Below, one piece after another: positions 12,001 through 41,543 of a stretch of 64,000 bases of DNA. The notes under the pieces were generated by a model, which was given only the letters and a program-made list of their open reading frames with translations, did not search any database and was not told where the DNA came from. Made by a program: the position numbers and the translations under genes. Source of the stretch: Candidatus Aenigmatarchaeota archaeon (GTDB taxonomy: Archaea > Aenigmatarchaeota > Aenigmatarchaeia > CG10238-14 > SpSt-28); assembly GCA_038997165.1 (NCBI GenBank), contig JAWBAK010000001.1, positions 61,926 to 125,925 on the forward strand. The letters are read 5' to 3'. Position 1 is the stretch's first letter. Each line of letters begins with the position of its first letter.

Positions 12001-15000
12001 AGAAAGTATAGAATATGAATTTTTCTTTAATGTTACGGATGATGACAATAATATAGCGGAAAGTGAAATAAAAAACTTTACTCTTGAAAGAGATGATATT
12101 TCAGTCAGTTTAGCAGAGAGTTATGTAGAGTATAATAGAAGTAGTACAGAAAAGGCTTCTCTAATAATTTCAATAAGAGATTTAGATGCAAATTCCTATG
12201 CAACGAGAGCTGTTAATGCAACATTATATGTAACTAGAATTCCAGGAACAACAAACTACTTTATAGATAACGTTTACATAAATAGAAATCCTGTTCTAGG
12301 AAACATAACATTTTACTTTCCACAACAAAACAAATGTTTATATAAAGTAGGGCCACAAAAATGGTATGTAAGTATAAATTCAAGTTGCTATAAACCAGCG
12401 AATTCTCCAATAGGAACTCTTAATATCACGAGCTTGCCTCTAAATTCGACATTAATATATCCTATAGGAGAATATTTCCCACAAGGATATAATATACCAA
12501 TAACTGTAGAAGTTTATGATGATTGCGAAAAAGTTGATGGTGCATCTCTTTCAATAGAAGTTATAAATCCAAACAACGAAACTATTGAATGTTATCCTGT
12601 TTCGAATCTTGGAAATGGAGGCTATAGGTGCTCGTTTAGCGATACTTATTTATTGGGAAGCTACACAATTAAAACACAAGCAAATAAGCAATACTATCCT
12701 GAAGGGTATATTAATGAATTTCCAAACGCCTTTTTCATTACTTCAGCACCTTTCATAGATTCCACAGAAGTCTATGCAAGTAGAACATCAAGCGAAGAGG
12801 GTGGATGGGGAGACACATGGTTCTTTAAAATAAGAGTTTATGACGAAGATCAAAGTTTTATAGAGTTTGAAAAACTAAATATTAGTTTATACATAGATTT
12901 TGGTAATGGATACGAATACATATCTTCGCAAATATGTGAAGCTCCAGAATGTGCAAGTCTAAAAGAATTTGTTTTTACGCATACATTTGATTGTTCAAAG
13001 ATTGGTGATAATAAGAAATTTAAGTTTATAGTTAGAGATTTCTTCAATAATACTGTTGAATCTGCCGAAGGGTATTTTAACATATTACCAGATGAACCGC
13101 AAATAACAATTCTAAGAAAGCCAACAAGAATTAATAGAGAAGGGAATTTTGCTGATATGTTTAACATTTCTGTTATAGATGTAGATAGAGGAGTTCCAGC
13201 AAATGCTACTCTTACATTATTTATTACAACGGATTCTTCGAACTTTAATTTCTATGTTAATCTAAATTCCGTAAATGGAATTGCTACATATAGCTTTGAT
13301 CCTGATTGTAGATTTAGCGCTGGAATTCAATATTTCAAAGTAAGCACAAACGATTCTTGCTATAAGCTCAAAACTAGCGATATTGACGAATTCGAAATTA
13401 TAGGAAGTTTACAAAACTATATTATTTATCCATATAGAAATTCGGATATTTTAATAGAATTTGGAAAAATCGAAAATATAACTTTAAATGTTAAAGATGA
13501 GTGTGAAAATGATATTGAAAATGCTAATGTTAATCTAAATGCTATTTGGCCAAATAATTATATAGAAAATATTCCTGTTTATGAAGAAAATAGTGGAATT
13601 TATAATGCAACTTGGAATTTAAGTAGAAAAATTGGTGGATATTATTCTTTTGTTTTTAATTCTTCCAAGGAATATTATAATTCTAATTCAACATTATTCT
13701 TAAATTGGATTTATCTAAATAATACTCCACCAATAATTGAAAATATAAGTGTTAATCCATTAGTTGGTGGATGGGGAGAAACGTTTACATTTAGCGCAGA
13801 TGTTTTTGATATTCAAAGAGATGATGTTGTTTGTAAGCTATATGTTTATACAGGGAAAAATACTTGGTTATATAAAGGAAGTGTAACTATTAAAGATGGG
13901 GTTGGAAAGTGTATAATAAATGTTAGTGATTTTGATTGCTCAGATATTAATGTTACTTCTTTGAATATGTTTAAGTTTGAAATTTCTGATGTAAACAATG
14001 TTTTTAATACTACAGAAATTTTTGCACCAGCAATAGGTAAAAATGATGTTGAAATTTATTATGTATTTGGAAATAATAGTTTCGTTAATAGAGCGTATTA
14101 CAACACAACCTTATTATCTTTAAGGATATTTGATAAAATTAAGAATACATTTGTAGGTTCTAATGTTAGAGGTTTTGTAAAAGTTACTAAAGATGGAAGT
14201 AATTATGGAGAAGAAATTATAAACTATACCAATTCTTCTGGATATCTAAATGTTTATTTCGATCCAAGCGGAGATTATGAAGTAGGTATTCAAAAATGGC
14301 TTGGAGGAGTTTTGAACGATAATTGTTATTTAGATAAAAATAGTGAAGAGTATTATTTAACTATCTTAGGAGAAATAGCTCTTAGTTATTTTGGAATAGA
14401 TAGAGAAGATGCTCGATACCTTAAGCCAAAAGATGATATTACAATTACTATAGCGCTTCAAGATGATAGGGGCTCGTATATAAATGATGCAAACGTTAAT
14501 ATAACTTTAATAGATGAGTTTAATAATAAATATATTTGCCCTATAAGTAATCTTGGCGGTGGAACTTATCAATGTTCTATTAGCACATCTGTCTTAGCTG
14601 CTAGATGGTATAACGTTTCTATATTAGCTAAAAAAGAATATCATTTAGATCTAAATGTTACATTTTCCAACGTATTTTTCATAGAAACAGAGCCAAAAGT
14701 ATATAATATAAGTGCTATTAGCGAGGAAAACTCAAATATTGGTGGATGGGGAGAAACGTGGAAATTCGTTGCAATTTTTGAAGATGAAGATTTAGATAGA
14801 AATGAAATTTGGATTCAAATCAAGCCAGAAAACTCTGAAAATTGGTATACTGTCAATAGTACTATAATTTCTGGAATTAATAAGACAACTATTGAACTTA
14901 TAGTGAAAGATCCAGGATTACTACAACAATATTTAGGCATATGGAATGCTCAATTCTATTCAATCGATAATAGAGGATATATAAGTTATAGTGAAATTAT

Positions 15001-18000
15001 TAATTTCACTGTAGAGAAAAATGATGTAAGAATAGAATTAGTTGAAGGAAATAATTCAACTGTATGGCGAAATAATACAGAATCTGTAACTTTAAAAGTT
15101 AGAATTTACGATTTAGATCAAAAGATATATGTATCTTCTCCTTCAGCAAAAACATATTTCTTTATAACTTATGATGGAAATGTTTTTGATGAAGGAAGAG
15201 AAACTTATACAGATAATGAAGGTTATTCATACATTGATTTCGATCCAGATTGTAGATATAAGACAGGTGTTCAAAAATGGGTTGTGAAGATTATTAACGA
15301 TACTTATTATAAAGATTCTTCATCTCAAAACTTCACATTAAACATTTACTCTACTTTAATTCCGAATGTAACATTTCCAGATGGACATGCATTTTTAGTT
15401 GGGGAATTAGTACCTATAAATGTTAGCCTAAGAGATGAATGTGAATATGTAAATAAAGCAAGTGTAACAATAAGAGTTAGATATTTAGCAACTACATATA
15501 CTTGCACTCCAGTAAATAATATTGATAATGGAATTTATAACTGTGTTTGGGACTCTAGTGGAAAAGCATATGGAGGTTATGATGTAATAGCTATTGCTTC
15601 GAAATCTTTCTACGCATCTAATTCAACGACAAAACCTCTAGCATTTTATTTAGCATCAATACCACAGCTTTCTAACGCATCTGTTAATCCATTAGTTGGT
15701 GGATGGGGAGAAACGTTTACATTTAGCGTAAGATTAACTGATTTAGATAGAAATCAAAATAATGTTACCTTATGGAAAAGTTATGATAATCAAAGTTGGA
15801 TTTATGTAACAAGTAAATTAGTTACACCAACATATGCAGGATATTTAGTAAGTTTTGTTGTAACGTTTGATTGCGAAGATTTATTAAATGGTCCTCTAGT
15901 ATATTTCAAGTTTTCATCAAAAGATCAATTCGGTTATTATAATGAAAGTGGAATAATTAATGTTACATTTGAGCAAAACGATGCTTCATTAAGTATTATA
16001 GAATATAATTCAAGCGTTAGAAGGCTAGAAAACAATATATCGTATTTCTTACTTAGAGTTTACGATAGCGATAGAAAAGTTTATCCAAATAATACAGAAG
16101 TCACTTTATATATAACTGAAAATGGAAATGACTATACAATAGAAATTATTAATCAAACATATTTAGGAAATGTATCTTTCTATTACGATCCTACATGCTC
16201 TTCAAACGTAGGAATTCAAAAATGGTATGCGAAAATCACAGATGTTTGTTATAAAAATGTTAATACAACAGAAAGAGCTTTAACTGTTATTGGACAATTA
16301 TATATAGACATCTTGAATCCAAAAAACAATCAAATCTTAAACAGAAATACTACTTATTACTTTAATTCTAGCGTATATGATGAATGTAATTTAATAATCG
16401 ATAATGCAAATGTTAGCTGGTTCTTTGGAAATACAAGAATTGGTACTACGTATAACGTTACATATACCATTCCATTTAACTATAAGTTAGGATTAGAAAA
16501 TGTAAAAGCAAACACTTCTAGGATTTATTACGATCCAAATGAAAAGGTTATAAATGTTTATGTTTATGGATTTGCAGATTTAACAGAAATTTATCCACAA
16601 ACAAATTCAAAATTCTTAGCTGGAGAAATAGTAAATTTAGTTTGCAGAGTTATGGATAAAAATCTAAATGTACCAATCGAAGGATATACAGTATATTTCT
16701 ATAGAAACGATACATTAATAGGAAGCTCGCTAACAAATTCTAGTGGATATGCAACATTCAGCTGGTCAACAGTTAACGAATTAGCTGGATTTGTAGAGAT
16801 GAAATGTAGGATAACTAACGACGATATTAAATATTATAATGCATCTATTTCAGAAATTTCTTCTTTAATAAGAATTAGAAGACCTATAACAATAAGAGAG
16901 ATTTCTGTTACACCAAATGAAATTTATAGAAATGATACTTTTTCACCAAACATAGCTACTATAAAAGTGAGAACATATGATTCAATAATAGCGGCAACAA
17001 GTAATGCAATAGTTTATTTCTATAACGAAACAGATTTAATTGGAAACTGCACACCAGATTCTTTTGGCTATTGTTCGATAACATATAATCCACCCAACGA
17101 AACTAATGTTGGAATTAAATACATTTACATAAACGCAACACCAACGATAGAAGGTAGAGAAAACTCAGATACATATATCACATCTTTTATAGCAAAAGGT
17201 AAATTATATATTCAAATATTAGAACCTTCGAACTCTAGCATATTTGCAAAATCTTCAACAGTTAATATAAGAACTTATGTAACTAGTGAAAATGGCGAAA
17301 ATATTCCTGCATTATATCCAAATTCAAGAGTAAATATTACAAACTCTTCGAGCATAATTGGTTTCGCTTATCCAACAGGGGAGGCAAATATTTATGCTGG
17401 AAGCTTTAACTTATTAGATCAAAAAACTGGATGGTTAAATATATCTACTATAATAAACATTCCATATTATGATTCTGCAGTAGATTCTATATGGATATTA
17501 GTAACTGGTTTAGCTGGAGTAGAATTTACATTTCCAAGCAATAACCAAGAAATAACTTATCCTTCAACAATATATCCAACTTGCTTAGTTAAAGATTTAG
17601 ATAGTGAAATCGGAATAGAGAATTATCCTGTAGAATTCTATTATAAAACGTCAAGTAGCGATTGGATATATGTATCTACAGAAATAACGAATTCTAGTGG
17701 ATTAGCAAACATATCTTTTACAACCCCATCAAAGGGAGAGTTTTACTTTAAATGTGTTATTAGCGATAATGCAACTTTGGTATATTCTGCTATATATAAT
17801 GAAAGCATTGTTAGAATTTTAGTTAAAGATCTTACCCCACCAGAAATTTTAGAAACTTCAATAAGTCCGACATATGATATAGAGGCAAATAGAGATTTTG
17901 TAAATATTTCTGCAGTAGTATCTGATAACATAGGAATTAGTGAAGTCTGGGCAATGATTGGCTTGCCAAATGGTAGTTCAGTAAGAGTAAATATGAATAA

Positions 18001-21000
18001 AATATCTGGAAATTTAACATATGGATTTTATTCAGCCATTTATATTCCTCCAATAGGCGGAGAATATAATGTAACAGTATTTGCAAAAGATTTGCCACCA
18101 GAAGCAAATGTTAACTCATCTTTTGCAGGAATTTTCTACGTATTTGGAAAAACTAATCTTGAGCTTAACGTATTTCCAGAAAACATTATTGCAGATGGTA
18201 TTACAATATATAATGGCTATCCTTTTGAAATAATAATAAATGTTAGTAATTTAGGTCCCGCGACAGCATACGATTTAAACATAACACTATTTGATGACAG
18301 TGGAAGAATTGAATATTCAACTAATATTATTACTATTTCTAACATAAGCAGGTATATAAACATCTCGCAAATGATTATGGCAAGAGTAAAAGAAGCTACA
18401 CCAGCACAAACCATTAATATATTCGTTAACCTAAGCTGGAGAAATCCAGATTTAACATATAACTATACTGTTAAAAGAATATTCGTAATAGTTGCAGAAA
18501 ATCCAAAATTAGAAATTAAGCCAGAATATATCAATGAAGTTGTTGAACACGACACAATAAAGATTATAGGTAGTGTAAACATTACAAATATTGGAAACGT
18601 GCCAATTACCGAAATTTTACTCTCTACAGATTTAAACACTCCGTTTTATATGTATTGTTTGAATTGTTCCATATCACTATTTCCAACATATCAAGGATTC
18701 TTAGCAATGGGTCAAAGCTTTATTAGTGAAATTACTGTTAGTATTCCTGCGGGCCAAGATCCTGGAAGTTATTGGAGTAGGATATTAGTTTCTTCAAAAG
18801 AGGCAGCCACTGTTTATTCAATAATAAATATAACTGTACCTATAAATAATTCTTGGATTATTGATAAAGAGATTAGTGGAATAATTCTAGCTCCATTAGG
18901 AACTAAAAAAGAAATTGACAAAATTAACTTTTCGAATATTGGAAATGTTAATGTAACTATCTCTATATACTTAAGTGGAAGAGGTGCCGAATTAGTAAGA
19001 GTAGAAAATAGAAGTTCATTTTCTTTTGTATTACCAAAACAAAAAGAAAGATTAGTTTCATTTAGTTACGATATACCAAAAACTAAAAATGAAGGACTTT
19101 ATGATGTAAGAGTAGTAATGGTAAGTACAGATGGTTATCCGAATCTAAGAGAATTTATATTTACGTTAAATGTAACAGATATTCCACCAATAATAGAGAA
19201 TGTAACATTTTCAAAAACAGATTTTGAAATAAACGAAACTATAAATGTAACTGCAAAAATATATGATAACATTGAATTAGATAAAGCTTGGATAAACATA
19301 TCTTATCCAAACAATACTTATGAAATTAAATTGCTGAAGAAATTGCAAGACGATATATTCTACGAAAATATTTCATCTAGAATTGCTGGAGAAATTAAGA
19401 TATCAATCTGTGCAAACGATACTAAAGGTTTAACCAGTTGTACAGAAGAGTTTATAATTAGAGCTCATTCAAAAACTATTTTAGATGTTCTATCAGAAAA
19501 AATAGTTTTTGAAAACGTTACATTAAGAAATTCTCAAACAAAAACAGTTATACTAAACTTAACTAACTTAGGTTTTGCAAGAGCATTTAACGTTAGTATA
19601 AAAGGTGAAGATGAAATTTTTGATATTACTTTAACTAATGTATCATTAATTTTGGCTAGAGAAATAATTCCAGTAATTGTTAATATAACAGCATTAAATG
19701 GAACCTATAGTGGAAATTATTCTGCAAAAATAAATATAACTTGGATTAATTTAGATGGAAGCATTGAAAGTAAAATATCTTTAATTCCAATAGAAGTTTT
19801 GCCAGTTCATTTGATAGAAATAGAAAATAAAACAGAATATATTAAAAACAATGAAGAAAGAATTGTTAATATATCTTTATCTGCTGTAGGAAATGTTAAC
19901 GAAACTAATATAACATTAATTTGTTCTGCAAACTGCGAATTGTTTAAAATAGATCTAAACGAAACTATTGATAATATAGCACTTGGAGAAACCATAGAAA
20001 TTCCAATAAGAGTTTTTGTTCCTTCTGATTTAGAAAGTGGGGAATATATGGTTGAGTTAAAGGCTTATAATGAATTTACTTCAGCAACCGGATATCTAAA
20101 AATAATCGTTCCTATAAACATTTCTTGGGAAATTTATCCAATTTATGAAGAAATAGAAAGCGTACAGGGAGAAGAATTATTTAGAAATATAACAATAAGA
20201 AATACAGGAAATTTAAGATTGTTATTGAATTTGTCTTCAATAGCAATAAACGGATCTAACTTTATATATTTTGAAAATGATAAAAACTTTACTACAATAA
20301 GTTTAAGAGTTGGTGAAACAAAAATTATTCCAATAAAAATAGTTGTTCCTATAGTTTACGATTATTCCATTTTTGAAAACAGAATAGTTTCGCTTAACTT
20401 TACAACTCAATCTGGCTTAATAACTAAGAATTCTACATTTATACTTAAAATACATCCATTATTTGTAAAAATAATCGAACCTACAGAATCGAATCCACTA
20501 AAAAGAGTTGTTGCTGGTGATACTATTTATGCTAAGGTAAATGTAAGTTATGGAAATGAAACTTTAACATCTAATGTTAGTTTTCAAATATTTTTATCGA
20601 ATGAAACATATAGGCATGAAATAGAAAATTTCACAGCTCAATTCTTAGTAATTGAAAAATTATGGTTATTAACATTCATAGCTCCTAATTTAACAGAAGG
20701 AATAGGATATGATTTAATCGTTAATGCTACATATTTATTAAAAAATGTTTCAAAAATAGATGTAGAACCAAAATCAATAATTTATCTTGACACTATTCCG
20801 CCAGAAATTGAAATAATTATTCCGGCTAGAATTAGAGTTAATACATCAGCTATATTCTGGTTTAATATAACAGATTTAGGTGGAGTAGAAAGTGCTAATG
20901 CTATAATAATTAAACCAGATAGCAATATTAGTGAATATAATTTAACGTTTGTAAAAAGAATAGGAAGTACATATATATACAAATTAGAGTTTAATGAAAC

Positions 21001-23685: not shown

Positions 23686-24918
23686 ATGAAAGAAGAATTA
23701 TTAAAACAAAAAAAAGAGATTGAAGATTTATTAAATGAAATTGAAAATAGTTATAGAAAAGGTGAAATAAGTGAAGAATCCTACAAAGAAATTATTGAAG
23801 AAAATAAGAAAAAATTGGAAGAAATAGAAAAGAAATTAAAAGAAATAGGAGAAAAAAGAGAGGAGAAAAAAGAGAAAAAAAGTAGAATAGAAGAAATTAT
23901 TGAAAGAGTCTTTAAAGTAGAGAAAGAAGTTTCTTCAAAAGAAATTAAAAAGGTTCAAGAAGATTTATCAAAAGTTAGTGTAGAATTAGAAAAAACAAAA
24001 GCATTGATCGATACACTTAAAGAAATGAAACAAACAACAGATGAAAAAATTATAAGAATTACAGAAAATATTGGTGAGTTGAGATCTATGTTAGTTGCGA
24101 GAGAATCTAAGGTTAGAGAGTTAGAAGCTAATGTTGAAAGAATGAAAGAAGTTATAAAGGAAATTGAGCCTGAAAAGTATATGAAAGAATTGAATAAAAT
24201 AAGAAAAGAAATTGAGTTATTTAGAGCTAAGGTTGAAAAAGTTGAATATTTAAGTGGAGAAGCTGCGAAAGCTGTTAAAGAATTGCAAATGCAATTAAAG
24301 ATAATAGGAAATGTTGAAAATTTAGCAAAATTAAACAAAGAATTGCAAGATAAATTAAAAGAAATTCAACTGATCTCACAAAAAATCGAAAATATGTCGG
24401 CTAAAATCGAATCTATATTTGTTGAGCTTAACAAAAAAATGAGAGATATAGAAATTTTAAAGGATAAAGTCGACGTACTATTTCAAAATTACAATGAGCT
24501 TAGTAGAAATGTTAACGATGCAATTAATAAATTAGAGAATTTTGTTACAAAAAACGAATTTAATAGCTTTAGAGATTATGTAGGTAATTTAGAAAAGCAA
24601 ATAGTTGAAGCTGAAAAGAAAAAAGAGAAAAAAATAGAAGAGGAAGCAACAAAAAGAATTAAAGAAATTGAGGAAGAAATTGAGGGAATTAACTTATTAA
24701 TTCAAAGTTTAGAAGAAATGTTAAATGAAGGAAAAATTTCTAAAGAAGAATATGAAAGCTTAAAAAATACGCATATTCAAAAAATTAGAAAACTAGAAGA
24801 GGAAAAGGAAAAAATATTGAATGATAGAAAAATGAGCAAAATTGAAATGAAATTAAGAGAACTATATGAAAGAGGAATAATAAGTGAGGAGCTTTATAAA
24901 AAACTTACTAAAAAATGA
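23686..24918 (+). CDS. 410-aa K/E-rich coiled-coil protein with three SHOCT-like motifs
   Basis: ATG lies 2 nt after the giant gene's stop. Heptad-rich throughout, no TM. GxISxExY motifs: RKGEISEESYKEIIEENKKKL at the N-terminus, NEGKISKEEYESLKNTHIQKI in the middle, ERGIISEELYKKLTKK at the C-terminus. Its TGA stop overlaps the next start (ATGA at 24915). Confidence 0.8.
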   Translation: MKEELLKQKKEIEDLLNEIENSYRKGEISEESYKEIIEENKKKLEEIEKKLKEIGEKREEKKEKKSRIEEIIERVFKVEKEVSSKEIKKVQEDLSKVSVELEKTKALIDTLKEMKQTTDEKIIRITENIGELRSMLVARESKVRELEANVERMKEVIKEIEPEKYMKELNKIRKEIELFRAKVEKVEYLSGEAAKAVKELQMQLKIIGNVENLAKLNKELQDKLKEIQLISQKIENMSAKIESIFVELNKKMRDIEILKDKVDVLFQNYNELSRNVNDAINKLENFVTKNEFNSFRDYVGNLEKQIVEAEKKKEKKIEEEATKRIKEIEEEIEGINLLIQSLEEMLNEGKISKEEYESLKNTHIQKIRKLEEEKEKILNDRKMSKIEMKLRELYERGIISEELYKKLTKK

Positions 24919-27900
24919 AAAAAATATTAATAATAGCTATATTTTTGTTTTTTGGTTTATTAATATCCTTTTTTATTTCAAATTTCACAGGATTTTTTGT
25001 TTATAGATATGTAGAAGATAAATGGTGGAATTCTAGTTATAATTTTAGAATTAAAATAGAAATTGATAGTAGTGATTATGTTAGAACTAATTGGCCAATA
25101 GAGATTTTTATAAATTTTACCAAAAAGTTAGAAGAATTAAATATAAGCGGAAACTTAGATTTAAATTCTTTAAGATTAGTTGAATATGATAACAACGGCA
25201 ATCCAATAGGAATTATTCCATTTCAATTCGATATAGAAGAAAATTTTAACAAATCAAATAATGCAGTTGGAGAGCTAGTTTTCATTTTAAACGGAACAAA
25301 CAATGCAAAAAGAAAATTTTATTTATATTTTGACATAGAAGAAAATGGCTTAAAAGAAAGAGTAGAATTTCCAACAAATCTTTCTTATTCCATAGAAAAC
25401 AATTTAATTAAAATTAACACAACCGGATTTATTTTTACATTAGCAAATACATCTAATAAATTTGGTTTTGTAAATATTGAAAGAAAAGAAGAGTTTGGCG
25501 GCTTATATATATTTTATCCATCCGATATCCCTTTTGAATATTCAACAACATATAATCAATCCCATCAGTTTTTCTATATTCCATATGATTTAGAAATTAT
25601 TGAAGGTCCAATAAGATTGGGGATAAAAGTAAAAATGGTTGAAATAGATAATTTTGGAAATATAACTGGAATAAACTATACGAAGACATATTACTTCTAT
25701 AATTATGCTGGCCCCGGAAGTTTAGAAGATGTAGCTGCTAATTTAGTTAAGATTAAGCAAAAGTTCTTAGGTAATGCTATAAGGTTTTCAAACTATTCTT
25801 TTGGATTCGAAGTATCTAATTTATATGGAGATCCTCAAGTAAATATTGGATTTGATGTAAATCTAAACAATCCATACTCATATGCTTATGCATTTAGAGG
25901 TTCTTTTAGCGCCATGATAATTAACCTAAATTATTCTAATATAGAATTTTTTGCAAATAGCGATAGCGAAAGTTTTATAGGTTTTTACTTTAATGAAAAT
26001 GAAATAAATAATGCTGAGCATATTGGCTTAGCTTTTTTTGGTATATTATCTACACCAGAAGAACAAGAATATCCATATAAAATCTTAAATGGATTTTCAA
26101 ATCCAATAAGTATCAATATTTATAGTACTGAAAATAGAGAAGTTATATTTGGAGTTCATACTGAATTTGATATATATAATAGAGGGGAAAATGTAAAAAT
26201 TGTTGCATATAACATTTCAGATCCATACAATCTTGTATCTTATGTAATTGCAAGAATTGATAGAGGAACAGAAAATGAAAACGATGATATAATTTTAGAA
26301 TTATTCGATGATGGGCAACATAACGATAATTTACCAAATGATAAAATCTTTGGAAACAACTTTACTATTTTACCTATTGATGAAATTGGAATTTGGAAAA
26401 TAAAAATTTATGTTTTCGATTCTAATAATGTATTGCTAGCAACTAATGAAACTTATTTTAATGTTACAAATATTTTGCGCGTAGAAACCAATATAATTAA
26501 TAAACATGGAGATGTTAATAGAATTTTACAAGCTTTAGTTAATGTAAAGAATTTTAGAGAAGATGAAAACATAACAAATGCAGAAATAAAATGTTTTGAT
26601 AATGGAATTGAAAAAGAAATAGATGTATTAAATTTTAATAACGGAACTTATTTAATTTCTATTAATTCCTCTAGTAATCCAGGATATAATATTTTAAACT
26701 GTTCGGCATCATATTTAAATAATAGCGGATATGATTTCGATATATATGATTCCACAGATGTTATAACTTATCTTTCTATAGAAGCTATTCCAAATTCGTA
26801 TTTTGCTGAAAACATTACATTTTATTCTAGTGAAAGCTTCAAAGTAATTATAAATGTTACTAATTTACACATAGGTTACGCTTATGATGTTAACATAACA
26901 TTTAATACTTCAAATTCCATTGAAGTAATCCCAGAAATAGAATATTGTGATAATATTTACATCGAAGAATATTGTACAAAAGAATTTATAGTAATAATAA
27001 AAAATGCAACTTTACCTAACGTATATAATATAACTGCTATAGTAAATTGGAGAAATCATGACGAAAGCTATAGCTCTAACACAACAAATATAACTATTGA
27101 AGTAAAGAGTAATAAAATTTTAGAAATTTATCCAGATGAAATTTTTAGTGTGAATCCTCCTGGAAAGGAAACATACTTAGGCAAAATAATTCTTAATTCT
27201 ACTGGAAATGATTTTGTTTATAACATTTCTTTTTCTTCTAATATTACTGATTTAGAGTTTATATTTAATCCAAATATAAGTTATATAGAGCCTGGAAAAA
27301 TAGTTGAAATAAATGTTAATGTTAGTATTCCATTAGGATATCCTGCTGGAACTTATTATGGAATTATAAATGTTAGTAGTGAAATTGGATATAAAGAAAT
27401 TAATTTAACTTTAAAGGTTAGCGGAACAAATGCAACAATAGAAATTTATCCAAATTATTATTTTGCCGAAAATATTACAACTTTAACATCGGAAAGCTTT
27501 GAAGTTATAATAAATGTTACTAATATAGGAAATGTAGATGCCTTCTTTTCAAACATTTCTATAGAATTGCCAAATGACAATTTTTCTTCTAACATAACTT
27601 TTTTTGATTGTGGAAATCTATCTGCAAAAGAAAGTTGTATTATATTTGTAAAAATAAATATAAAGGAATTAACATTACCAAACATATATGAAATAATTTA
27701 TTTCTTCAATTGGACTGATATAGGTTTAGAAAGTAGAAGCATAAGTAATAAAACTATTGTTGAAGTAAAGAGTAATAAATTTTTAGAAATTTATCCAGAT
27801 GAATTTATAGTAAGTGCTAATCATAACGAAACTAAAAATATAGGCAAAATAATTCTTAATTCTACTGGAAATGATTTTGTTTATAACATTTCTTTTTCTT

Positions 27901-30641
27901 CTAATATTACTGATTTAGAGTTTATATTTAATCCAAATATAAGTTATATAGAGCCTGGAAAAATAGTTGAAATAAATGTTAATGTTAGTATTCCATTAGG
28001 ATATCCTGCTGGAACTTATTATGGAATTATAAATGTTAGTAGTGAAATTGGATATAAGGAAATATTGCTTAACATAACTATTTTGAGAGATGGGTTTTGG
28101 ATTATAGATAAGGATTATTGTGAAGCTACGTTTTATCCACCTATTGGAATAGTTTGTGAAATAAATATAGAAAATTTGGGAAATATACCATTAAACTTTA
28201 ATATTACACCAAAAGAAGTAAATTATACCTGGATTAATGTAACTGATTTTACTATTTATCCACAAACAAACTATAGTTTTGAAATTTATTATGATGTTAG
28301 AAATGCTCCATTAGAGTTTATTTATGCTACATATAATATAAGCGCTATAGAAGTGGATGCAATACCTAAGTTTAGATTAATAAACATAAGCTTAAGACCA
28401 TTTATTGGTGCAATAGCAAACCTAACTATTTTTCCAAATATAACTTCGCAATCCTCTAACATAACAATTAATGCTTCTGTATTCGATAGAAGTGGAATTG
28501 GTATGGATTATGTAATTGCAATAATACAAAAACCAGATGGTTTAACAGAGAATATAACATTAACTAAAATCTCGGAAATCAATAGAACTTCTGTTTGGAT
28601 AGGAAATTTTAGTAATACTACACTAAGCGGAAAATATTTTGTAATTTTGGAGATGAAGGATAATGCAAACATAACTACTTATGCCTATGGTAATTTTTCT
28701 GTATATAAAATTCTGTTTCCAAACATATACATTAATAAAGATGAATATGAAAGAGGGGAAAGCATTTCTATATATTTTAATTTAGTTGATTATGCCAATA
28801 TTGGTATTGATAATGCAAGCGTAAGATTAAGAGTATTTAATCCAAGCGGATACAAAATATTCGATGAAATATATGTAACTGAAAATGGGAAAATTCCTAT
28901 AGCAGTTATTAATATACCGACAGATGCAGAATTAGGTAGCTATTCTATTATTGCTAACATAAGCTATTACGACGAAATCAAAGAAGATTTTTCTTATTCG
29001 AGTGATTTAAAAAGTTTCTTAGTTGTTGAAAAACCAAAAATTTCTCTTTTTGCAGATTTAGAAACGAGTGTAGTATGGTATCCAGAAAATGTAATAAAAT
29101 TTGCAATGACTTTCTATGATAATAGAGGAAATCTTTTTGATCCAGATTATGCAGAGCTAAACGTTTTTGATCCCGCAGAAAACTTATATTTTTCAAAAAA
29201 TATAAGCGAATTTAAAAAAGAAAGCTTAGGTTTCTATACTTTAAAGTATGCAATGCATCCCTATACTGCTACAGGTGCATACTTAGCTATTTTGAATTTT
29301 AGTAAAATGAATATTTCTTCAATAAAAACAAAAATGTTTAGGGTAAGTGCTGGTGGACCTTTTGACTTAAAAGTTAATCTTCTAAAAAAAGAGGTAGAAA
29401 GAGGAGATTTGCTACCTTTTGAAATTACAATAATTAACATGGGTGAAGTTAGTATGGATGTTTTTATTGAATATTATGTAAGTGATAAAGATGGTGAAGT
29501 TTATTATTATTCTAGTGAATGGATTTATTCGCCAGCAGCATCAAATAAAACAATTTTAAGAAATGTTTATATATTTTCTAATCAGCCGCTAGGCTTACAT
29601 TATTTAAATGTTATTATGACTTATGATACTATAAAACCTCCACTAAAAGTTAATGAAAGTTTTATTGTAATTGAGAAAATTGAAAAACCTGCACCAATAC
29701 ATAAACCGGTTCAACCAACGATACCAATTGTTGAAATTGCTCCAATAACTCCAAATATAACTAAAAATTATAGTATCGAATTTTTATATATACCTAAAGA
29801 GGTAAGAGTTGCTGCTGGTGAAGAAAAAAGTTTTTTAGTTGTAATAAAAAATGATGGAAATCAACCATTAACTAATGTTGAAGTCAAATTATTAGGAATT
29901 GATACTAGCTGGTATAAAATAAAAAATGAATCATTAAAGTTTTTTGATGTAAATCAGACTATTATTTTTGAAATAATTTTACTAATTCCAAAAAATATAA
30001 AGCAACAAGAAATTAACGTTGTGTTTTATTTTAAATCTTTTGAATTTTTTACATCTAAAGAATTTATATTAAAAATATTTCCATCTTTAGAAGAAATGTT
30101 ACTAGATGAATTAAAAGAATTAAAATCAAAATTAATAGATTTAAAAATTAAAACTTATGAAGCAAAAATACAAAATAAAAATGTTAGTGAAGTAGAAAAA
30201 ATAATAACTAAATGCGAAGAATTAATTAAATTAATAGAAGATTTAATCAAATCTAAAGAATATACAGAAGCTAGTATAAAACTATATGAATTAAGAAGTT
30301 TAATAGATAAAGGTTATTATTTGCTAGAAATTGCTACATTTATAATAAAATTTGAATGGGAAAAATTTTTGTTCATCATTACTTTAATAACTATTATTTC
30401 TGGAATAATCTCAATAATTATACTCTATGTATTAAATACTAGAAAACTACAAAAAATAACTTATAAAGCTGTCGAAAGTACAATTCAAGAACTTAAAAAG
30501 ATAAAATTCGAAAATAAAAAAGAGGAAATAGAAAAAACTAAAAAAATTTTAGATATTCTAGAAAAAGAATATAAAGAAGGAATTATTTCAAAAGAAACTT
30601 ACGAAGAATTAAAAAAGAAATATGAAGAAAAATTGAAATAA
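24915..30641 (+). CDS. 1908-aa surface protein: N-terminal signal/anchor, CARDB-like beta-sandwich repeats, Pro-rich linker, C-terminal TM helix and a cytoplasmic coiled-coil tail ending in a SHOCT-like motif
   Basis: Starts MKKILIIAIFLFFGLLISFFISNF. Many NxS/T sequons. Motifs include VTNLHIGYAYDVNITF and VTNIGNVDAFFSNISI. Linker KPAPIHKPVQPTIPIVEIAPITP (about 29686-29755). TM FIITLITIISGIISIIILYVL (about 30366-30440). The tail ends ...KEYKEGIISKETYEELKKKYEEKLK. ATGA-coupled to the upstream gene. Confidence 0.85.
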   Translation: MKKILIIAIFLFFGLLISFFISNFTGFFVYRYVEDKWWNSSYNFRIKIEIDSSDYVRTNWPIEIFINFTKKLEELNISGNLDLNSLRLVEYDNNGNPIGIIPFQFDIEENFNKSNNAVGELVFILNGTNNAKRKFYLYFDIEENGLKERVEFPTNLSYSIENNLIKINTTGFIFTLANTSNKFGFVNIERKEEFGGLYIFYPSDIPFEYSTTYNQSHQFFYIPYDLEIIEGPIRLGIKVKMVEIDNFGNITGINYTKTYYFYNYAGPGSLEDVAANLVKIKQKFLGNAIRFSNYSFGFEVSNLYGDPQVNIGFDVNLNNPYSYAYAFRGSFSAMIINLNYSNIEFFANSDSESFIGFYFNENEINNAEHIGLAFFGILSTPEEQEYPYKILNGFSNPISINIYSTENREVIFGVHTEFDIYNRGENVKIVAYNISDPYNLVSYVIARIDRGTENENDDIILELFDDGQHNDNLPNDKIFGNNFTILPIDEIGIWKIKIYVFDSNNVLLATNETYFNVTNILRVETNIINKHGDVNRILQALVNVKNFREDENITNAEIKCFDNGIEKEIDVLNFNNGTYLISINSSSNPGYNILNCSASYLNNSGYDFDIYDSTDVITYLSIEAIPNSYFAENITFYSSESFKVIINVTNLHIGYAYDVNITFNTSNSIEVIPEIEYCDNIYIEEYCTKEFIVIIKNATLPNVYNITAIVNWRNHDESYSSNTTNITIEVKSNKILEIYPDEIFSVNPPGKETYLGKIILNSTGNDFVYNISFSSNITDLEFIFNPNISYIEPGKIVEINVNVSIPLGYPAGTYYGIINVSSEIGYKEINLTLKVSGTNATIEIYPNYYFAENITTLTSESFEVIINVTNIGNVDAFFSNISIELPNDNFSSNITFFDCGNLSAKESCIIFVKINIKELTLPNIYEIIYFFNWTDIGLESRSISNKTIVEVKSNKFLEIYPDEFIVSANHNETKNIGKIILNSTGNDFVYNISFSSNITDLEFIFNPNISYIEPGKIVEINVNVSIPLGYPAGTYYGIINVSSEIGYKEILLNITILRDGFWIIDKDYCEATFYPPIGIVCEINIENLGNIPLNFNITPKEVNYTWINVTDFTIYPQTNYSFEIYYDVRNAPLEFIYATYNISAIEVDAIPKFRLINISLRPFIGAIANLTIFPNITSQSSNITINASVFDRSGIGMDYVIAIIQKPDGLTENITLTKISEINRTSVWIGNFSNTTLSGKYFVILEMKDNANITTYAYGNFSVYKILFPNIYINKDEYERGESISIYFNLVDYANIGIDNASVRLRVFNPSGYKIFDEIYVTENGKIPIAVINIPTDAELGSYSIIANISYYDEIKEDFSYSSDLKSFLVVEKPKISLFADLETSVVWYPENVIKFAMTFYDNRGNLFDPDYAELNVFDPAENLYFSKNISEFKKESLGFYTLKYAMHPYTATGAYLAILNFSKMNISSIKTKMFRVSAGGPFDLKVNLLKKEVERGDLLPFEITIINMGEVSMDVFIEYYVSDKDGEVYYYSSEWIYSPAASNKTILRNVYIFSNQPLGLHYLNVIMTYDTIKPPLKVNESFIVIEKIEKPAPIHKPVQPTIPIVEIAPITPNITKNYSIEFLYIPKEVRVAAGEEKSFLVVIKNDGNQPLTNVEVKLLGIDTSWYKIKNESLKFFDVNQTIIFEIILLIPKNIKQQEINVVFYFKSFEFFTSKEFILKIFPSLEEMLLDELKELKSKLIDLKIKTYEAKIQNKNVSEVEKIITKCEELIKLIEDLIKSKEYTEASIKLYELRSLIDKGYYLLEIATFIIKFEWEKFLFIITLITIISGIISIIILYVLNTRKLQKITYKAVESTIQELKKIKFENKKEEIEKTKKILDILEKEYKEGIISKETYEELKKKYEEKLK
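27099..28063 (+). repeat. Internal tandem duplication (period 663 nt) in the 1908-aa gene: a two-domain unit repeated twice, with the second sub-domain nucleotide-identical between copies
   Basis: Block 27180-27395 equals 27843-28058 (216 nt identical, encoding GKIILNSTGNDFVYNISFSSNITDLEFIFNPNISYIEPGKIVEINVNVSIPLGYPAGTYYGIINVSSEIGYK). The 5' part of each unit (KSNK(I/F)LEIYPDE...) is near-identical for ~42 nt and then diverges. Confidence 0.9.
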
Positions 30642-30674: not shown

Positions 30675-31442
30675 ATGGCAGAAATTATAGCCTTTTTATC
30701 TGGAAAAGGTGGTGTTGGTAAGACTACTATTGCAATTAACATAGCAAACGTTTTGTCGACATATTTTAGAAGAAAAGTATTAATTGTCGATACAAATTTT
30801 ACAACCTCTCATTTGGGTTTAAGTTTAGGAATTTTTTATCCAGAAGGAAATTTAAATAAAGTATTAAGAGGAGAAATGAATGTTGAAGATGCTATACATA
30901 ATTATTCTTTAGGTCTTGACTTATTGCCGCTATCTTTATCTATTAGAGATTTAGAAGGGATTGATATATTAAAATTTCCAAGAGTTTTAGAAAGTGTTAA
31001 TTACCGATATGATTATATAATTTTAGATGCAGCTCCAGGACTCGGAAGAGAAGCTATTTTATCTATTAAAAATGCTAATAAAATAGTTTATATTGCTCTG
31101 CCTATAATGCAAAGTGTTGTAGATATAGTTAGAACTCAAGAAGTTGTAAGAGAGTTTGAAAAAAAAGAATTAGGAATTATATTAAACATGGTTAGAAACA
31201 AACCTTATGAAATGAGAGATAACGATATTGAAGGATTAACAAATTTAAAAATAATTGGAAAAATTCCATATGATGAAAGATTTTTAATTTCAAATGCACA
31301 TAAATTGCCCTATACAACCCTTTATCAAAATAACAAAACTTATGAAGAATTTCTAAAGATTTGTAGTATTTTAACAAATCAAAAAATAGAAATTAAAAAA
31401 AGTTTGTTTGGAAGAATATTAGAATTTTTATTTAAAAAATAA
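30675..31442 (+). CDS. MinD/ParA-family (SIMIBI) ATPase, 255 aa
   Basis: Deviant Walker A FLSGKGGVGKTTIAINIA. Blocks VDTNFTTSHLGLSL and IILDAAPG (Walker B-like). Size typical of MinD/ParA/Mrp. Confidence 0.85.
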   Translation: MAEIIAFLSGKGGVGKTTIAINIANVLSTYFRRKVLIVDTNFTTSHLGLSLGIFYPEGNLNKVLRGEMNVEDAIHNYSLGLDLLPLSLSIRDLEGIDILKFPRVLESVNYRYDYIILDAAPGLGREAILSIKNANKIVYIALPIMQSVVDIVRTQEVVREFEKKELGIILNMVRNKPYEMRDNDIEGLTNLKIIGKIPYDERFLISNAHKLPYTTLYQNNKTYEEFLKICSILTNQKIEIKKSLFGRILEFLFKK

Positions 31443-31454
31443 TATATATTAATT

Positions 31455-31682
31455 ATGGTTTACAATATAAGTTTAACATTAATATTAGCTATATTACTAA
31501 TTAGTATCTCTTTTTTATTTTTATTAATATATAAAAAAAGAAAGAAGAGTATAGATGAATTAATACAAGAAATTGAAAATAATCTATTAGATATTAAAAA
31601 AAATCTAGAAAATATTCGTTTAATTTTAAAAAAAGAGCAAAAAGAAATAAAGAGAAAACATGCCAGAAAGAGGAGCATTTGA
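31455..31682 (+). CDS. 75-aa single-TM protein with a basic/coiled-coil tail
   Basis: MVYNISLTLILAILLISISFLFLLIYKKRKK... The hydrophobic N-terminus is followed by KKRKK. It overlaps the next ORF start by 23 nt. Short, so the call is uncertain. Confidence 0.45.
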   Translation: MVYNISLTLILAILLISISFLFLLIYKKRKKSIDELIQEIENNLLDIKKNLENIRLILKKEQKEIKRKHARKRSI

Positions 31683-33561: not shown

Positions 33562-34214
33562 GTGAAATTCTCGAAATATTGAAAAAGAAAAAAGAATATG
33601 AAAAAATTAGAGAAGAAATTAAGAATGTATCAAACAAATTAAGTCAATTAGAAAATAATTTTATTTATTTAAATAGAGAATTTAATAATCTAAAAGAGGA
33701 ATTTAATAAACTTAAAGAATTAGATCCTATACTTTCAAAATTATTAGAAACTATAAAAAAAATTGAGGAATTTGAAACAAATATAAAAGAAATTAAAGAT
33801 TTAAAAGAGAAATTGAAAATAGATTTAGAGAAAAAAACAAAAAAGAAAATAATTAAACTAATAGAAAAATTAAACTTAAAAGAAAATATTAAAAAAGATA
33901 TAGAAAAAGAAATGAATAAAATTTTAAATGAAAAAATTAATGAAATTGAGAAAAAATATTGGAAGGATTTATCTGAAATAAAGGAATTGAGAAAAAACAT
34001 TGAAAATTTAAAAATTGAAAAGAATAGATTGAATGAAAAAATTTTTGAGTTTGGAAAAATTGAAAATTATTTAAATGAAAAGATTAGAAGAATCGAAAAT
34101 GAAATTGAAAGAATTAAAGGAAAGGTAGAGGAATATGTTAATGAAGTTATAAAAGAAGTAGAGGAATATGTTAATAATTCAATTAAAAAAATTGTTAAGA
34201 ATAGGGGGGTTTAA
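33558..34214 (+). CDS. 218-aa coiled-coil protein
   Basis: K/E/I-rich heptads. Ends ...KNRGV with a G6 tract in the last codons (34204-34209). Confidence 0.7.
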   Translation: MSEILEILKKKKEYEKIREEIKNVSNKLSQLENNFIYLNREFNNLKEEFNKLKELDPILSKLLETIKKIEEFETNIKEIKDLKEKLKIDLEKKTKKKIIKLIEKLNLKENIKKDIEKEMNKILNEKINEIEKKYWKDLSEIKELRKNIENLKIEKNRLNEKIFEFGKIENYLNEKIRRIENEIERIKGKVEEYVNEVIKEVEEYVNNSIKKIVKNRGV

Positions 34215-34340: not shown

Positions 34341-34345
34341 TAAAA

Positions 34346-34957: not shown

Positions 34958-34962
34958 TTATT

Positions 34963-41514: not shown

Positions 41515-41543
41515 AAAAAAATAAAATAAAGGAAAAAATATTA

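Follow-up and report, generated by a model that had tools for sequence, protein, structure and literature searches.

SHOCT and related, SHOCT-like modules occur widely; in model organisms, the domain is rare. [quoted passage not shown] The founding paper proposed a role in oligomerisation; in its single experiment, a SHOCT fusion analysed by size-exclusion chromatography behaved as a monomer and showed no self-association (PMC3581485). A later comparative study predicts that SHOCT-like domains anchor to the inner leaflet (PMC11237479). Neither PMC3581485 nor PMC11237479 demonstrates a molecular function for SHOCT. An earlier note on this DNA described SHOCT as thought to be an oligomerisation module; this goes too far, oligomerisation having been a proposal, the chromatography having given a monomer and anchoring having been predicted instead.

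SPEARE-type giants are the foremost candidates for the means by which DPANN symbionts attach to their hosts and exploit them. These giant membrane-anchored proteins were described in Nanohaloarchaeota (Hamm et al. 2019, PMC6642349; La Cono et al. 2023, PMC10266531), and their cytoplasmic P-loop ATPase is termed VirB4/TraG-like in the available passages of PMC10266531. The available passages of these two papers mention no downstream coiled-coil gene, no second surface protein with a SHOCT tail and no SHOCT-like module. Furthermore, our literature searches on DPANN or Aenigmarchaeota giant cassettes retrieved descriptions of neither the adaptor nor the SHOCT-tailed partner considered here. Another family to be compared is GvpG, which works through heterotypic protein-protein contacts in gas-vesicle assembly (PMC11445434).

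The locus studied here belongs to a 64-kb stretch of DNA, the whole of which is called the window below, and includes four genes of the same orientation (Table 1). The first encodes a giant protein whose huge, adhesin-like ectodomain is followed by a TM helix near the C-terminus, a cytoplasmic P-loop ATPase and a helical tip beyond this domain; it is assigned to the SPEARE type on the architecture given in the available passages of PMC6642349 and PMC10266531. Its ATPase matches DUF87 (42 bits) and HerA_C (23.4 bits) above the Pfam cutoffs, and matches to CedD/HerA in NCBIfam are far below cutoff. The second gene encodes a coiled-coil protein, hereafter CC, for which AlphaFold2 (AF2) gives an all-helical model (mean pLDDT 78.9). 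CC consists, in this order, of module 1, a linker, a conserved helical core, module 2 and module 3. Alignments of its homologues, which come from Aenigmatarchaeota and other DPANN, show invariant E120, G130, E131, R133, P162 and E184 in the core.

The third gene encodes a 1908-aa protein with an N-terminal signal/anchor, a beta-sandwich ectodomain bearing 82 N-x-S/T sequons, a C-terminal TM helix and a 68-aa cytoplasmic tail. It matches NPCBM_assoc above the Pfam cutoff (30.2 bits) and MG2 (24.8 bits), and its homologues are P0020-P0024 and neighbours of 1941-1999 aa in related loci. The fourth gene encodes a MinD-like ATPase that scores 151.8 bits with the NCBIfam model minD_arch (cutoff 201.75). 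The CC start codon lies 2 nt past the stop codon of the giant gene, and the CC stop codon and the ATG of the 1908-aa gene overlap in ATGA, which indicates co-expression. CC and the tail of the 1908-aa protein are on the same, cytoplasmic, side of the membrane.

Table 1. Genes, domains and modules of the cassette, with nucleotide positions in the window
Feature	Position	Strand	Evidence
Gene of the 7588-aa SPEARE-type giant surface protein	917..23683	+	ORF
Cytoplasmic HerA/VirB4-like P-loop ATPase domain of the giant, with TM helix and C-terminal helical tip	22499..23680	+	Pfam matches
TM helix of the 7588-aa giant	about 22499-22561 (about aa 7195-7215)	+	
Walker A GGTGSGKT of the giant's ATPase	nt 22742 (aa 7276)	+	
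Gene of the 410-aa cytoplasmic coiled-coil protein, putative adaptor (CC)	23686..24918	+	ORF
Module 1 of CC, N-terminal class, aa 11-49, EIEDLLNEIENSYRKGEISEESYKEIIEENKKKLEEIEK	23716..23832	+	motif scan, module HMM
Module 2 of CC, post-core class, aa 334-372, GINLLIQSLEEMLNEGKISKEEYESLKNTHIQKIRKLEE	24685..24801	+	Pfam, module HMM
Module 3 of CC, extreme C-terminus, aa 382-410, KMSKIEMKLRELYERGIISEELYKKLTKK	24829..24915	+	Pfam, AF2
Gene of the 1908-aa surface protein	24915..30641	+	ORF
C-terminal TM helix of the 1908-aa protein, aa 1818-1840, followed by NTRKLQK	30366..30434	+	sequence, positive-inside rule
Tail module of the 1908-aa protein, C-terminus, aa 1874-1908, KTKKILDILEKEYKEGIISKETYEELKKKYEEKLK	30534..30638	+	module HMM, AF2
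Gene of the archaeal MinD-like ATPase, 255 aa, C-terminal amphipathic helix KKSLFGRILEFLFKK	30675..31442	+	Pfam AAA_31, CbiA, ParA

A six-frame scan of the window for G.I[ST].E.[YF] retrieved the G-x-I-S-x-E-x-Y motif three times in CC (nt 23761-23784, 24730-24753 and 24874-24897) and once in the 1908-aa protein (nt 30579-30602), at its C-terminus, and the peptides first quoted for these sites are correct. The sole further match in the listed ORFs, CGSISSEYY (45549-45526) in a 408-aa minus-strand ORF, has a context unlike that of the other four. Shuffling of residues gives about 0.00065 motifs expected per protein, at least three motifs were never reached in 20,000 shuffles, and the motif was not found in the four other K/E-rich window proteins checked (633, 218, 1045 and 385 aa; 2,281 aa). 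The earlier observation is confirmed. Across all six reading frames of the window, an HMM of the 30-39-aa module recognises these four sites and no others, with 32.8-42 bits for module 1, 41-45 bits for module 2 and 38 bits for the tail. The four copies share 44-62% of their nucleotides and 31-58% of third positions, an identity that shows no recent duplication or gene conversion. The helical tip of the giant (…LKARGIDTFDIENEI…) was also considered as a further module and rejected, being out of register with the motif and without a match to the module HMM.

In the AF2 models, the motif corresponds at all four sites to a 5-residue break between two helices. This break covers residues 25-29 for module 1 (helices 2-24 and 30-64, pLDDT 87-93), 348-352 for module 2 (helices 289-347 and 353-382) and 396-400 for module 3 (helices 385-395 and 401-409). 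In the 241-aa C-terminal fragment of the 1908-aa protein, it covers residues 221-225, between a helix at 148-220, comprising the TM segment and a stalk, and another at 226-240. The tail module forms the last 35 aa of the protein. It is therefore C-terminal, as first described, but not directly after the TM helix: its Gly lies 48 residues beyond, and a single unbroken helix is modelled from the TM segment through helix 1 of the module. An alignment of 27 module sequences has no gaps through the core. The consensus of the module reads xIxxLLxxLExeY for helix 1, xxG/AxIS for the turn, in which Gly/Ala C-caps helix 1 and Ser/Thr N-caps helix 2, and xxxYxxxKxx(N/Y)xxKLxxI for helix 2. The hydrophobic positions form a heptad stripe along both helices.

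The Pfam gathering cutoff of SHOCT (PF09851) is 27 bits and all window copies fall below it. CC as a whole scores 21.5 bits (E=1.9e-4), isolated module 2 scores 19.5 bits (18.1 bits with SHOCT_2, also below cutoff), module 3 22.3 bits (E=1.1e-4) and the tail module 14.6-16.1 bits. Module 1 has no SHOCT match in Pfam and only weak ones to CdvA (21.9 bits) and GvpG (19 bits). Checked directly against SHOCT, the segments reach 14.6-22.3 bits where 27 are needed, module 1 giving no match. SHOCT is nevertheless the best Pfam family for modules 2, 3 and the tail. Furthermore, P0006, an orthologue of CC (31% identity over 84% of its length), exceeds the cutoff with three matched copies (44.3 bits), its C-terminal copy, orthologous to module 3, does so alone (28.6 bits), and it also passes SHOCT_2 (33.2 bits, cutoff 24). 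The proposed fit to SHOCT therefore holds as a kinship of the segments with each other and with the family, not as membership of the window copies.

Among 27 module instances searched against Pfam at E<=0.01, 12 matched SHOCT, 10 GvpG and five SHOCT_2. The module profile retrieved 403 matches at E<=0.001 among 1.84 billion representative proteins, mostly from the CC family, which points to a narrow subfamily. Among the matches listed, 118 of 146 newly retrieved proteins have the CC core, and others include TM-plus-tail fragments and tandem-module proteins. Some non-CC matches exceed the cutoffs of SHOCT, DUF1707 or GvpG; P0108 (45.8 bits) and P0154 (27.4 bits) pass that of SHOCT. With P0006 above cutoff and SHOCT, SHOCT_2, DUF1707 and GvpG matches retrieved by the profile, the four segments are assigned, on profile similarity, to a divergent SHOCT-like subfamily and not to noise. 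Against PDB sequences, the module profile gave chance-level matches only (a botulinum-like toxin, a xylosidase), with no solved SHOCT relative, and the CC family profile gave only generic coiled coils and designed bundles. In NCBIfam, CC has only far sub-cutoff matches to the coiled-coil models SMC, Rad50 and SpiroCoCo, and the tail has none. Kinship with CdvA (PF18822; PDB 9s9g) was rejected: this weak match recurs and is never significant, and the module profile does not retrieve CdvA.

The segments form the turn of a helix-turn-helix module of about 35-39 aa that is conserved in orthologues and under selection. Module 1 reads LEdEYRkAnISEkxY in orthologues. The post-core class, to which module 2 belongs, is the most widely conserved one. 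No other part of the tail is as well conserved, even in homologues only 27% identical: E-G-x-I-S...E-L-K does not vary over the range of 27-73% identity, and the module is found in 12 of 12 complete C-termini of 1908-like homologues. Conserved polar or charged positions are E10, S19 and K27, plus N30 in the post-core class. Each of the four window copies has the turn Gly. Among the orthologues, the N-terminal class mostly has Ala here (consensus YRkAnIS). In the post-core class, Gly is the commonest residue without reaching a majority, about one third of the copies having Lys, Asn or His, and four of the 12 tails carry Lys (once Gln) instead.

The scan for related loci was seeded with CC alignment A4, alignment A2 being too divergent. 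In 34 of 37 DPANN loci, CC directly follows the end of an ORF for a homologous HerA-type ATPase. The giant ORFs of 34 DPANN loci, among them nanohaloarchaeal ones, have ends homologous to the window ATPase (E=1e-111 to 1e-190). This obligate neighbour of CC, which the earlier note passed over, is decisive for the interpretation. Among the loci that extend at least 5 kb downstream, a 1908-like neighbour occurs in 18 of the 19 whose CC has modules versus none of the five with a module-less CC (Fisher p=1.4e-4, not corrected for phylogeny). L023 has three CC modules and yet no 1908-like gene within 9 kb. The 1908-aa protein is a co-conserved second surface protein of the cassette. In 14 related loci, the 1908-like gene or CC has a MinD homologue as neighbour, those named being L007-L009, L011-L014, L018, L024, L028 and L029. 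The last two are minimal systems that comprise MinD, a CC, an ATPase protein (about 730 aa) and a TM protein of 345 aa whose tail carries a module. Each partner keeps exactly one module there, which in CC is the post-core one.

The modules are real, SHOCT-like and under selection; they share one side of the membrane and are distributed together over genomes, and the window very probably carries genuine SHOCT-like modules in a SPEARE-associated cassette. This cassette has four parts: the SPEARE-type giant, whose cytoplasmic end is a HerA/VirB4-like ATPase; CC, the translationally coupled putative adaptor in the cytoplasm; the 1908-aa protein, in which a SPEARE-like membrane-proximal ectodomain and a TM helix are followed by the one-module 68-aa helical tail in place of the ATPase; and usually the MinD-like ATPase. 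In the mechanism proposed here, the conserved core of the adaptor would bind the giant at its ATPase end. The two or three modules of the adaptor would be docking hairpins that pair like with like with the tail module, forming small helical bundles on the stalk that the 1908-aa tail resembles. Two ectodomain proteins would thereby be tied to one cytoplasmic ATPase and scaffold.

The best explanation overall, which we rate as somewhat short of probable, is that docking hairpins couple the 1908-aa tail to an ATPase-associated coiled-coil adaptor, the binding partners being those that we infer from the cassette. Direct docking of adaptor modules on the tail module is in itself a realistic, tentatively held possibility. 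The more specific proposal that the hairpins are heterotypic connectors, coupling the HerA/VirB4-like motor of the giant to the tail of the second surface protein, appears rather unlikely. The lattice of cross-linked tails beneath the membrane that the earlier note envisaged is speculative and finds no support in these results. Several observations count against docking: the published SHOCT test gave no self-association (PMC3581485), the co-occurrence could merely be a common feature of one clade, L023 departs from it, and comparison by eye of the tail and CC modules of 12 genomes at the variable core position 30 revealed no apparent co-variation.

Alternatively, the modules may dock onto a shared third partner that recruits adaptor and tail in parallel, the candidates being the MinD-like ATPase, the helical tip past the giant's ATPase and the 98-110-aa 'GKISKEVY' proteins of some loci. 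Several data are consistent with such a partner. P0154 is a MinD/ParA-like protein with two C-terminal modules, i.e. a fusion of the Rosetta-stone type, and the MinD gene recurs in the cassette. In L002, L025 and L041, small soluble proteins adjoining CC bear a module-like element, and GvpG, whose C-terminal half is module-like, works by heterotypic contacts (PMC11445434). However, P0154 has an unrelated genomic context, loci of the L001/L002 type keep the CC modules with MinD absent within 10 kb, and the MinD of the window has no module and possesses its own amphipathic membrane helix. We consider this alternative rather improbable.

The modules could also be membrane-proximal anchors, amphipathic Lys-rich hairpins that would hold the adaptor beside the ATPase on the inner leaflet, and likewise the end of the tail. 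An adaptor devoid of TM helix must act at the membrane and has modules at its ends, and the tail has more basic than acidic residues (K+R 20 versus D+E 15). On the other hand, the tail protein is already anchored by its TM helix, and the continuous AF2 helix would keep the turn away from the bilayer by about 48 residues, or roughly 7 nm for a straight helix. Moreover, the conserved hydrophobic residues form a narrow heptad (a/d) stripe, of the helix-helix packing type, and not a broad lipid-binding face, and CC is net acidic overall (K+R 93 versus D+E 96). We consider anchoring quite unlikely. Equally doubtful is a purely structural role within one chain, where helix-capping hairpins related by common descent or domain shuffling would recognise no partner. 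The module also ends the free C-terminus of an unrelated membrane protein, is the one element recognised in small proteins and forms tandem arrays, and therefore behaves as an autonomous module. In addition, the conserved E10, S19, K27 and post-core N30 need not be buried, and the modules co-distribute with the 1908-like gene. Finally, K/E-rich coiled-coil noise, which could be suspected from the sub-cutoff scores of the four copies, the absence of a SHOCT match for module 1 and the plentiful weak matches to unrelated coiled-coil families, is refuted, with next to no probability left, by the three and one motifs seen against about 0.0006 expected per protein, their absence from the 2,281 aa of other K/E-rich window proteins checked, the position-specific conservation over dozens of orthologues and the above-cutoff score of P0006.

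Whatever the partner, a module present on two co-encoded and co-conserved proteins that face one compartment turns the question of what SHOCT binds into a concrete two-protein question. The cassette is hence a good natural system for learning the function of the SHOCT module. Furthermore, an adaptor behind the ATPase end in 34 of 37 loci, together with a SHOCT-tailed partner, suggests a larger machine than the lone giant discussed so far; this large second surface protein, whose tail matches, is found in Aenigmatarchaeota and relatives. If the coupling of motor and tail by docking hairpins were true, specific hairpin-hairpin docking would be the first demonstrated function in the SHOCT superfamily, and ATP-driven changes inside the cell could be passed to, or coordinated with, host-contacting structures. 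The SPEARE protein, the adaptor, the SHOCT-tailed partner and MinD would then constitute a previously unrecognised core of the DPANN host-interaction apparatus.

Compared with known families, the window modules resemble SHOCT, SHOCT_2 (PF20612) and the 'SHOCT-like' DUF1707 (PF08044) in having two amphipathic helices joined at a Gly. As in SHOCT, this Gly is followed by a hydrophobic residue, S/T, three variable residues and an aromatic one, without indels. SHOCT domains are also often found at the very end of a protein and behind TM segments; here, the tail copy, as the last 35 aa, and module 3, as the last 29 aa, lie within 50 aa of the C-terminus. In contrast to most SHOCT domains, module 1 is N-terminal and module 2 internal. 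The unit also differs in its length of about 39 conserved columns, with a helix 2 that extends into the coiled coil, and in the strongly conserved Gly, which is often Ala, Lys, Asn or Ser in orthologues. Position 19 of the SHOCT profile is presumably a strongly conserved Glu just before the aromatic residue, judging from the alignment coordinates and the HMM consensus. In the window, unlike SHOCT, only module 2 has this Glu (KEEY), the corresponding residue being Ser in module 1, Leu in module 3 and Thr in the tail, and among orthologues it is restricted to the post-core class.

The likeness to GvpG (PF05120) concerns its C-terminal half, since 10 of the 27 module instances match positions ~30-66 of the 67 of its profile, and tandem-module proteins retrieved by the module profile exceed its cutoff (57.4 and 50.4 bits). 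However, the window copies score 11.5-19 bits versus a cutoff of 30.6, the N-terminal half of GvpG is unmatched, and no gas-vesicle (gvp) genes were seen among the ORFs of the window. As for the SPEARE systems, homologous ATPase ends occur in the nanohaloarchaeal loci L038 and L039, and the nanohaloarchaeal CC homologues, unlike the CC of the window, have no modules. The genomic context is new: a conserved DPANN cassette that joins CC, a SHOCT-tailed surface protein and a SPEARE-type giant.

The 410-aa coiled-coil protein (hereafter the adaptor) and the cytoplasmic tail of the 1908-aa surface protein share a SHOCT-like helix-turn-helix module, built around G-x-I-S-x-E-x-Y, that occurs three times in the former and once in the latter. 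A six-frame scan of the window for G.I[ST].E.[YF] recovered the peptides and coordinates that the earlier note had assigned to these four motifs; the sole further match in a listed ORF, CGSISSEYY in a 408-aa minus-strand ORF, has a different surrounding sequence. The note had also argued against K/E-rich noise, and this argument holds: residue shuffles of each protein give an expectation of ~0.00065 motifs per protein, with at least three never seen in 20,000 shuffles, the motif is absent from the four other K/E-rich window proteins checked (633, 218, 1045 and 385 aa), and an HMM of the aligned 30-39-aa segments matches these four sites only in the six-frame translation of the whole window. 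Furthermore, the likeness reaches well past the 8-residue motif (consensus xIxxLLxxLExxYxxGxISxExYEExKxxxxxKL, ungapped across 27 instances). Compared at the DNA level, the four copies in the window gave no sign of recent duplication. The tail motif had been placed directly after the TM helix; the module is in fact formed by the last 35 residues of the protein, with its Gly 48 residues past the TM.

In AlphaFold2 predictions, each of the four motifs sits in a 5-residue break separating two helices. The adaptor modules fall into three position-specific classes with one consensus apiece. Within the cytoplasmic tail, the module is the best-conserved part, E-G-x-I-S…E-L-K being unchanged across six homologues with overall identities of 27-73%. 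Both module proteins face the cytoplasm, since the tail fits the positive-inside pattern, the 82 N-x-S/T sequons of the 1908-aa protein are restricted to its ectodomain and the adaptor has neither signal peptide nor TM segment. The feature is real and conserved: two co-encoded, cytoplasm-facing proteins bear autonomous helix-turn-helix units of SHOCT-like type that are under selection. The two genes overlap on the plus strand (the ATG of the second overlaps the stop of the first as ATGA), and 2 nt separate the stop codon of the giant SPEARE-type gene from the start of the adaptor gene. The 1908-aa gene also contains two 100% identical 223-nt copies, 663 nt apart (27178-27400 and 27841-28063, plus strand) and flanked by a 90-nt pair at 76% identity; the arrangement resembles the outcome of a very recent duplication, in tandem, of an ectodomain unit of ~221 aa, unless it is an artefact of the assembly.

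Features of the window, predicted module structures and module-bearing proteins of related loci
Feature	Position	Strand	Remarks
7588-aa SPEARE-type giant surface protein gene	917-23683	+	single ORF, 36% of window, upstream of 410-aa gene
TM helix of giant	about 22499-22561	+	
Walker A of giant	22742	+	cytoplasmic HerA/VirB4-like ATPase
410-aa K/E-rich protein gene	23686-24918	+	ORF; no TM segment
Motif in 410-aa protein	23761, 24730, 24874	+	six-frame scan
1908-aa protein gene	24915-30641	+	ORF; N-terminal signal/anchor, long ectodomain, C-terminal TM helix aa 1818-1840, 68-aa tail
Motif in 1908-aa tail	30579	+	six-frame scan
MinD/ParA-like ATPase gene 1	30675-31442	+	minD_arch 151.8 bits; C-terminal amphipathic helix KKSLFGRILEFLFKK; cassette member
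203-aa protein	34346-34957	+	among coiled-coil genes
127-aa protein	38101-38484	-	N-terminal coiled coil, TrmB/MarR-type winged helix (TrmB 29.7 bits)
706-aa surface-protein gene	38687-40807	-	part of a distinct gene cluster for TM and surface proteins, 38687-45738
MinD/ParA-like ATPase gene 2	40789-41514	-	overlaps start of 706-aa gene
2542-aa protein	45801-53429	+	second very large protein; repeated beta-propeller-like 'YAINGSDGSKIWNF' units; unrelated to module finding
Adaptor copy 1	aa 2-24, 25-29, 30-64		helix 1, break, helix 2 (AlphaFold2)
Adaptor copy 2	aa 289-347, 348-352, 353-382		helix 1, break, helix 2 (AlphaFold2)
Adaptor copy 3	aa 385-395, 396-400, 401-409		helix 1, break, helix 2 (AlphaFold2)
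Tail	aa 148-220, 221-225, 226-240 (241-aa fragment numbering)		helix 1, break, helix 2 (AlphaFold2)
N-terminal class			consensus LEdEYRkAnISEkxYxElkeky
Post-core class			consensus dIxlfLxSLEeQxxxgkIskeEYExxKxxNxkkL
C-terminal class			consensus LedlfkkGlISeeaYektk
P0154	L042 84-1259		MinD/ParA-like ATPase, two C-terminal modules
P0110			Ig-like ectodomain, TM helix, five cytoplasmic SHOCT-like (DUF1707) repeats
P0044 / P0134			hydrophobic N-terminal segment, four tandem modules; GvpG 57.4 bits, over cutoff
Small soluble proteins, 98-110 aa	L002 11704-12329, L025 11251-11553, L041 11866-12183	-	directly after adaptor gene, opposite strand

The assignment to SHOCT proposed in the earlier note stands through homologues rather than through the window copies. 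All of the latter remain under the Pfam SHOCT cutoff of 27 bits (whole adaptor 21.5 bits, E=1.9e-4; isolated copy 2, 19.5; copy 3, 22.3; tail, 14.6-16.1), and copy 1 alone has no SHOCT match in Pfam, only weak CdvA and GvpG matches; control coiled-coil proteins (633, 218 and 1045 aa) are without any Pfam SHOCT match. In contrast, the adaptor orthologue P0006 (31% identical across 84% of the query) reaches 44.3 bits with each of its three copies matched, 28.6 bits with its C-terminal copy by itself, and 33.2 bits against SHOCT_2 (cutoff 24). At E<=0.01, SHOCT is matched by 12 of 27 family module instances, the C-terminal half of GvpG by 10/27 and SHOCT_2 by 5/27. Moreover, a search of 1.84 billion representative proteins with the module profile (E<=0.001) gave 403 matches. 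Among those listed, 118 of the 146 newly found have the adaptor core. The others comprise fragments, proteins with a TM and tail, and proteins with modules in tandem; several of these non-core matches score over the curated cutoff of SHOCT, of DUF1707 ("SHOCT-like") or of GvpG. Because these homologues reach SHOCT-type families, the SHOCT affinity is settled, and we conclude that the four segments are a divergent subfamily of the SHOCT-like superfamily.

The C-terminal end of the giant consists of a TM helix, then a HerA/VirB4-like P-loop domain, which scores over cutoff for DUF87 (42 bits) and HerA_C (23.4 bits), and lastly a helical tip; the top NCBIfam match of the giant, the DNA-translocating ATPase CedD, is far under cutoff at 42.6 bits. 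We fetched 41 related loci (38 distinct); they belong to Aenigmatarchaeota and to MAGs that carry the labels Pace-, Nanohalo- or Micrarchaeota or Nanobdellati. Of the 37 loci with upstream sequence, 34 have the end of a homologous ATPase ORF directly before the adaptor gene. The 1908-like protein encoded near the adaptor gene has 1941-1999 aa, or 344-348 aa in the minimal systems L028 and L029, and carries the module on 12/12 complete C-termini; a MinD-like ATPase is often the fourth cassette member. The more distant homologues of the adaptor, in L006 and L030-L040 (Nanohaloarchaea among them), lack modules at any score and are without a 1908-like neighbour. In loci whose downstream sequence spans 5 kb or more, this neighbour occurs in 18/19 with adaptor modules and 0/5 without (Fisher p=1.4e-4, uncorrected for phylogeny). 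The membrane-proximal part of the 1908-aa protein is similar to the ends of the giants (E=1e-11 to 1e-31), so that this protein looks like a SPEARE-type protein with a SHOCT-like tail instead of an ATPase. In one Aenigmatarchaeota group (L001, L002 and L004), ~8 kb of genes separate the 1946/1957-aa gene from the adaptor gene and take the place of MinD; their products are two sensor histidine kinases (dCache/HAMP/HisKA and HisKA_7TM/PAS), a response regulator, a periplasmic binding protein and a small Arf/NOG1-like GTPase. These insert genes suggest that the apparatus is under signal-transduction control.

The adaptor core, between modules 1 and 2, has six invariant residues (E120, G130, E131, R133, P162 and E184); structure-based searches with it were uninformative. 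Since the adjacency of adaptor and ATPase persists where modules are absent, we infer that the core would serve the ATPase end of the giant. The modules would be an acquisition of the lineage in which the SHOCT-tailed partner is likewise present, and would dock that partner. Minimal systems retain one module per partner. AlphaFold2 predicts the tail as a single continuous helix from the TM through helix 1, and the hairpin would then lie about 7 nm beneath the membrane; protein docking is therefore favoured over lipid binding. Direct module-module docking between adaptor and tail is our tentative preference, at somewhat less than an even chance. The cross-linked lattice of the earlier note is speculative, although two or three modules on each adaptor would permit it. 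It is unlikely that adaptor and tail instead dock onto a common third partner, a reading in favour of which stand the MinD-module fusion P0154 and the small module-bearing proteins of some loci. The small 98-110-aa proteins bear a module-like element (…SGKISKEMYEEN…, …AGKISKEVYKKN…), and no counterpart was found in the window; P0044, with its hydrophobic N-terminal segment, is possibly secreted. Anchoring to the inner leaflet, as predicted for SHOCT-like domains (PMC11237479), is rather improbable given the predicted depth of the tail hairpin, and we would hold a role as purely structural hairpins to be improbable too. Coiled-coil noise as the source of the likeness is excluded by the shuffles, the K/E-rich controls and the homologue matches.

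Downstream of the first MinD gene, the plus strand (31455-38100) encodes a 75-aa single-TM protein and, in a region with a GC content of 17-22%, coiled-coil proteins of 633, 218 and 1045 aa; the module is absent from all proteins of this interval. Locus L007 repeats the gene order, with MinD, a 71-aa protein and a long protein without Pfam match. The cassette may extend to this larger set of cytoplasmic scaffold proteins. The 127-aa winged-helix protein is a possible local regulator; its gene lies where the coiled-coil genes of the plus strand meet the surface-protein cluster of the minus strand. The 2542-aa gene is followed by genes for paralogous secreted proteins of 173 and 689 aa, the latter seeming by eye paralogous to the neighbouring 173-aa ORF (53433-53954). 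Direct repeats are found in the 689-aa gene (54038-54444 / 54803-55209, 247 nt and 132 nt at 97-98% identity) and in the 1045-aa gene (35812-36111 / 37378-37677, 300 nt at 84%). Surface and scaffold genes of this locus appear to evolve via segmental duplication.

As described in two papers (PMC6642349, PMC10266531), SPEARE and other giant surface proteins of Nanohaloarchaeota have the same architecture as the giant of the window, with the ATPase located in the cytoplasm; according to Hamm et al., relatives also occur in Aenigmarchaeota, Woesearchaeota, Micrarchaeota and Altiarchaeales (PMC6642349). In the passages of the two papers retrieved by term search, neither the adaptor nor the SHOCT-tailed partner nor the module is mentioned, and a literature search for this cassette found nothing. 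In some distant loci (L031 1-8943, L037 3-9522), two successive HerA-like ATPase ORFs precede the adaptor gene; they match the second VirB4/TraG-like ATPase encoded directly downstream of the giant gene in cultured nanohaloarchaea, as described in PMC10266531. The earlier note had treated SHOCT as an oligomerisation module; this is only a proposal of Eberhardt et al., whose SHOCT fusion behaved as a monomer (PMC3581485). The finding overturns nothing, but the parts list of the DPANN surface machine grows, and SHOCT function, a long-standing question, becomes directly testable. Within the known SHOCT-like type, the module forms a narrow subfamily of extended length, in an architectural and genomic setting with SPEARE-type giants that was not described before. 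Compared with canonical SHOCT, the window copies score under the Pfam cutoff, the conserved unit is longer, the Gly is often substituted in orthologues (Ala in the N-terminal class) and the Glu preceding the aromatic residue is kept in the post-core class only.
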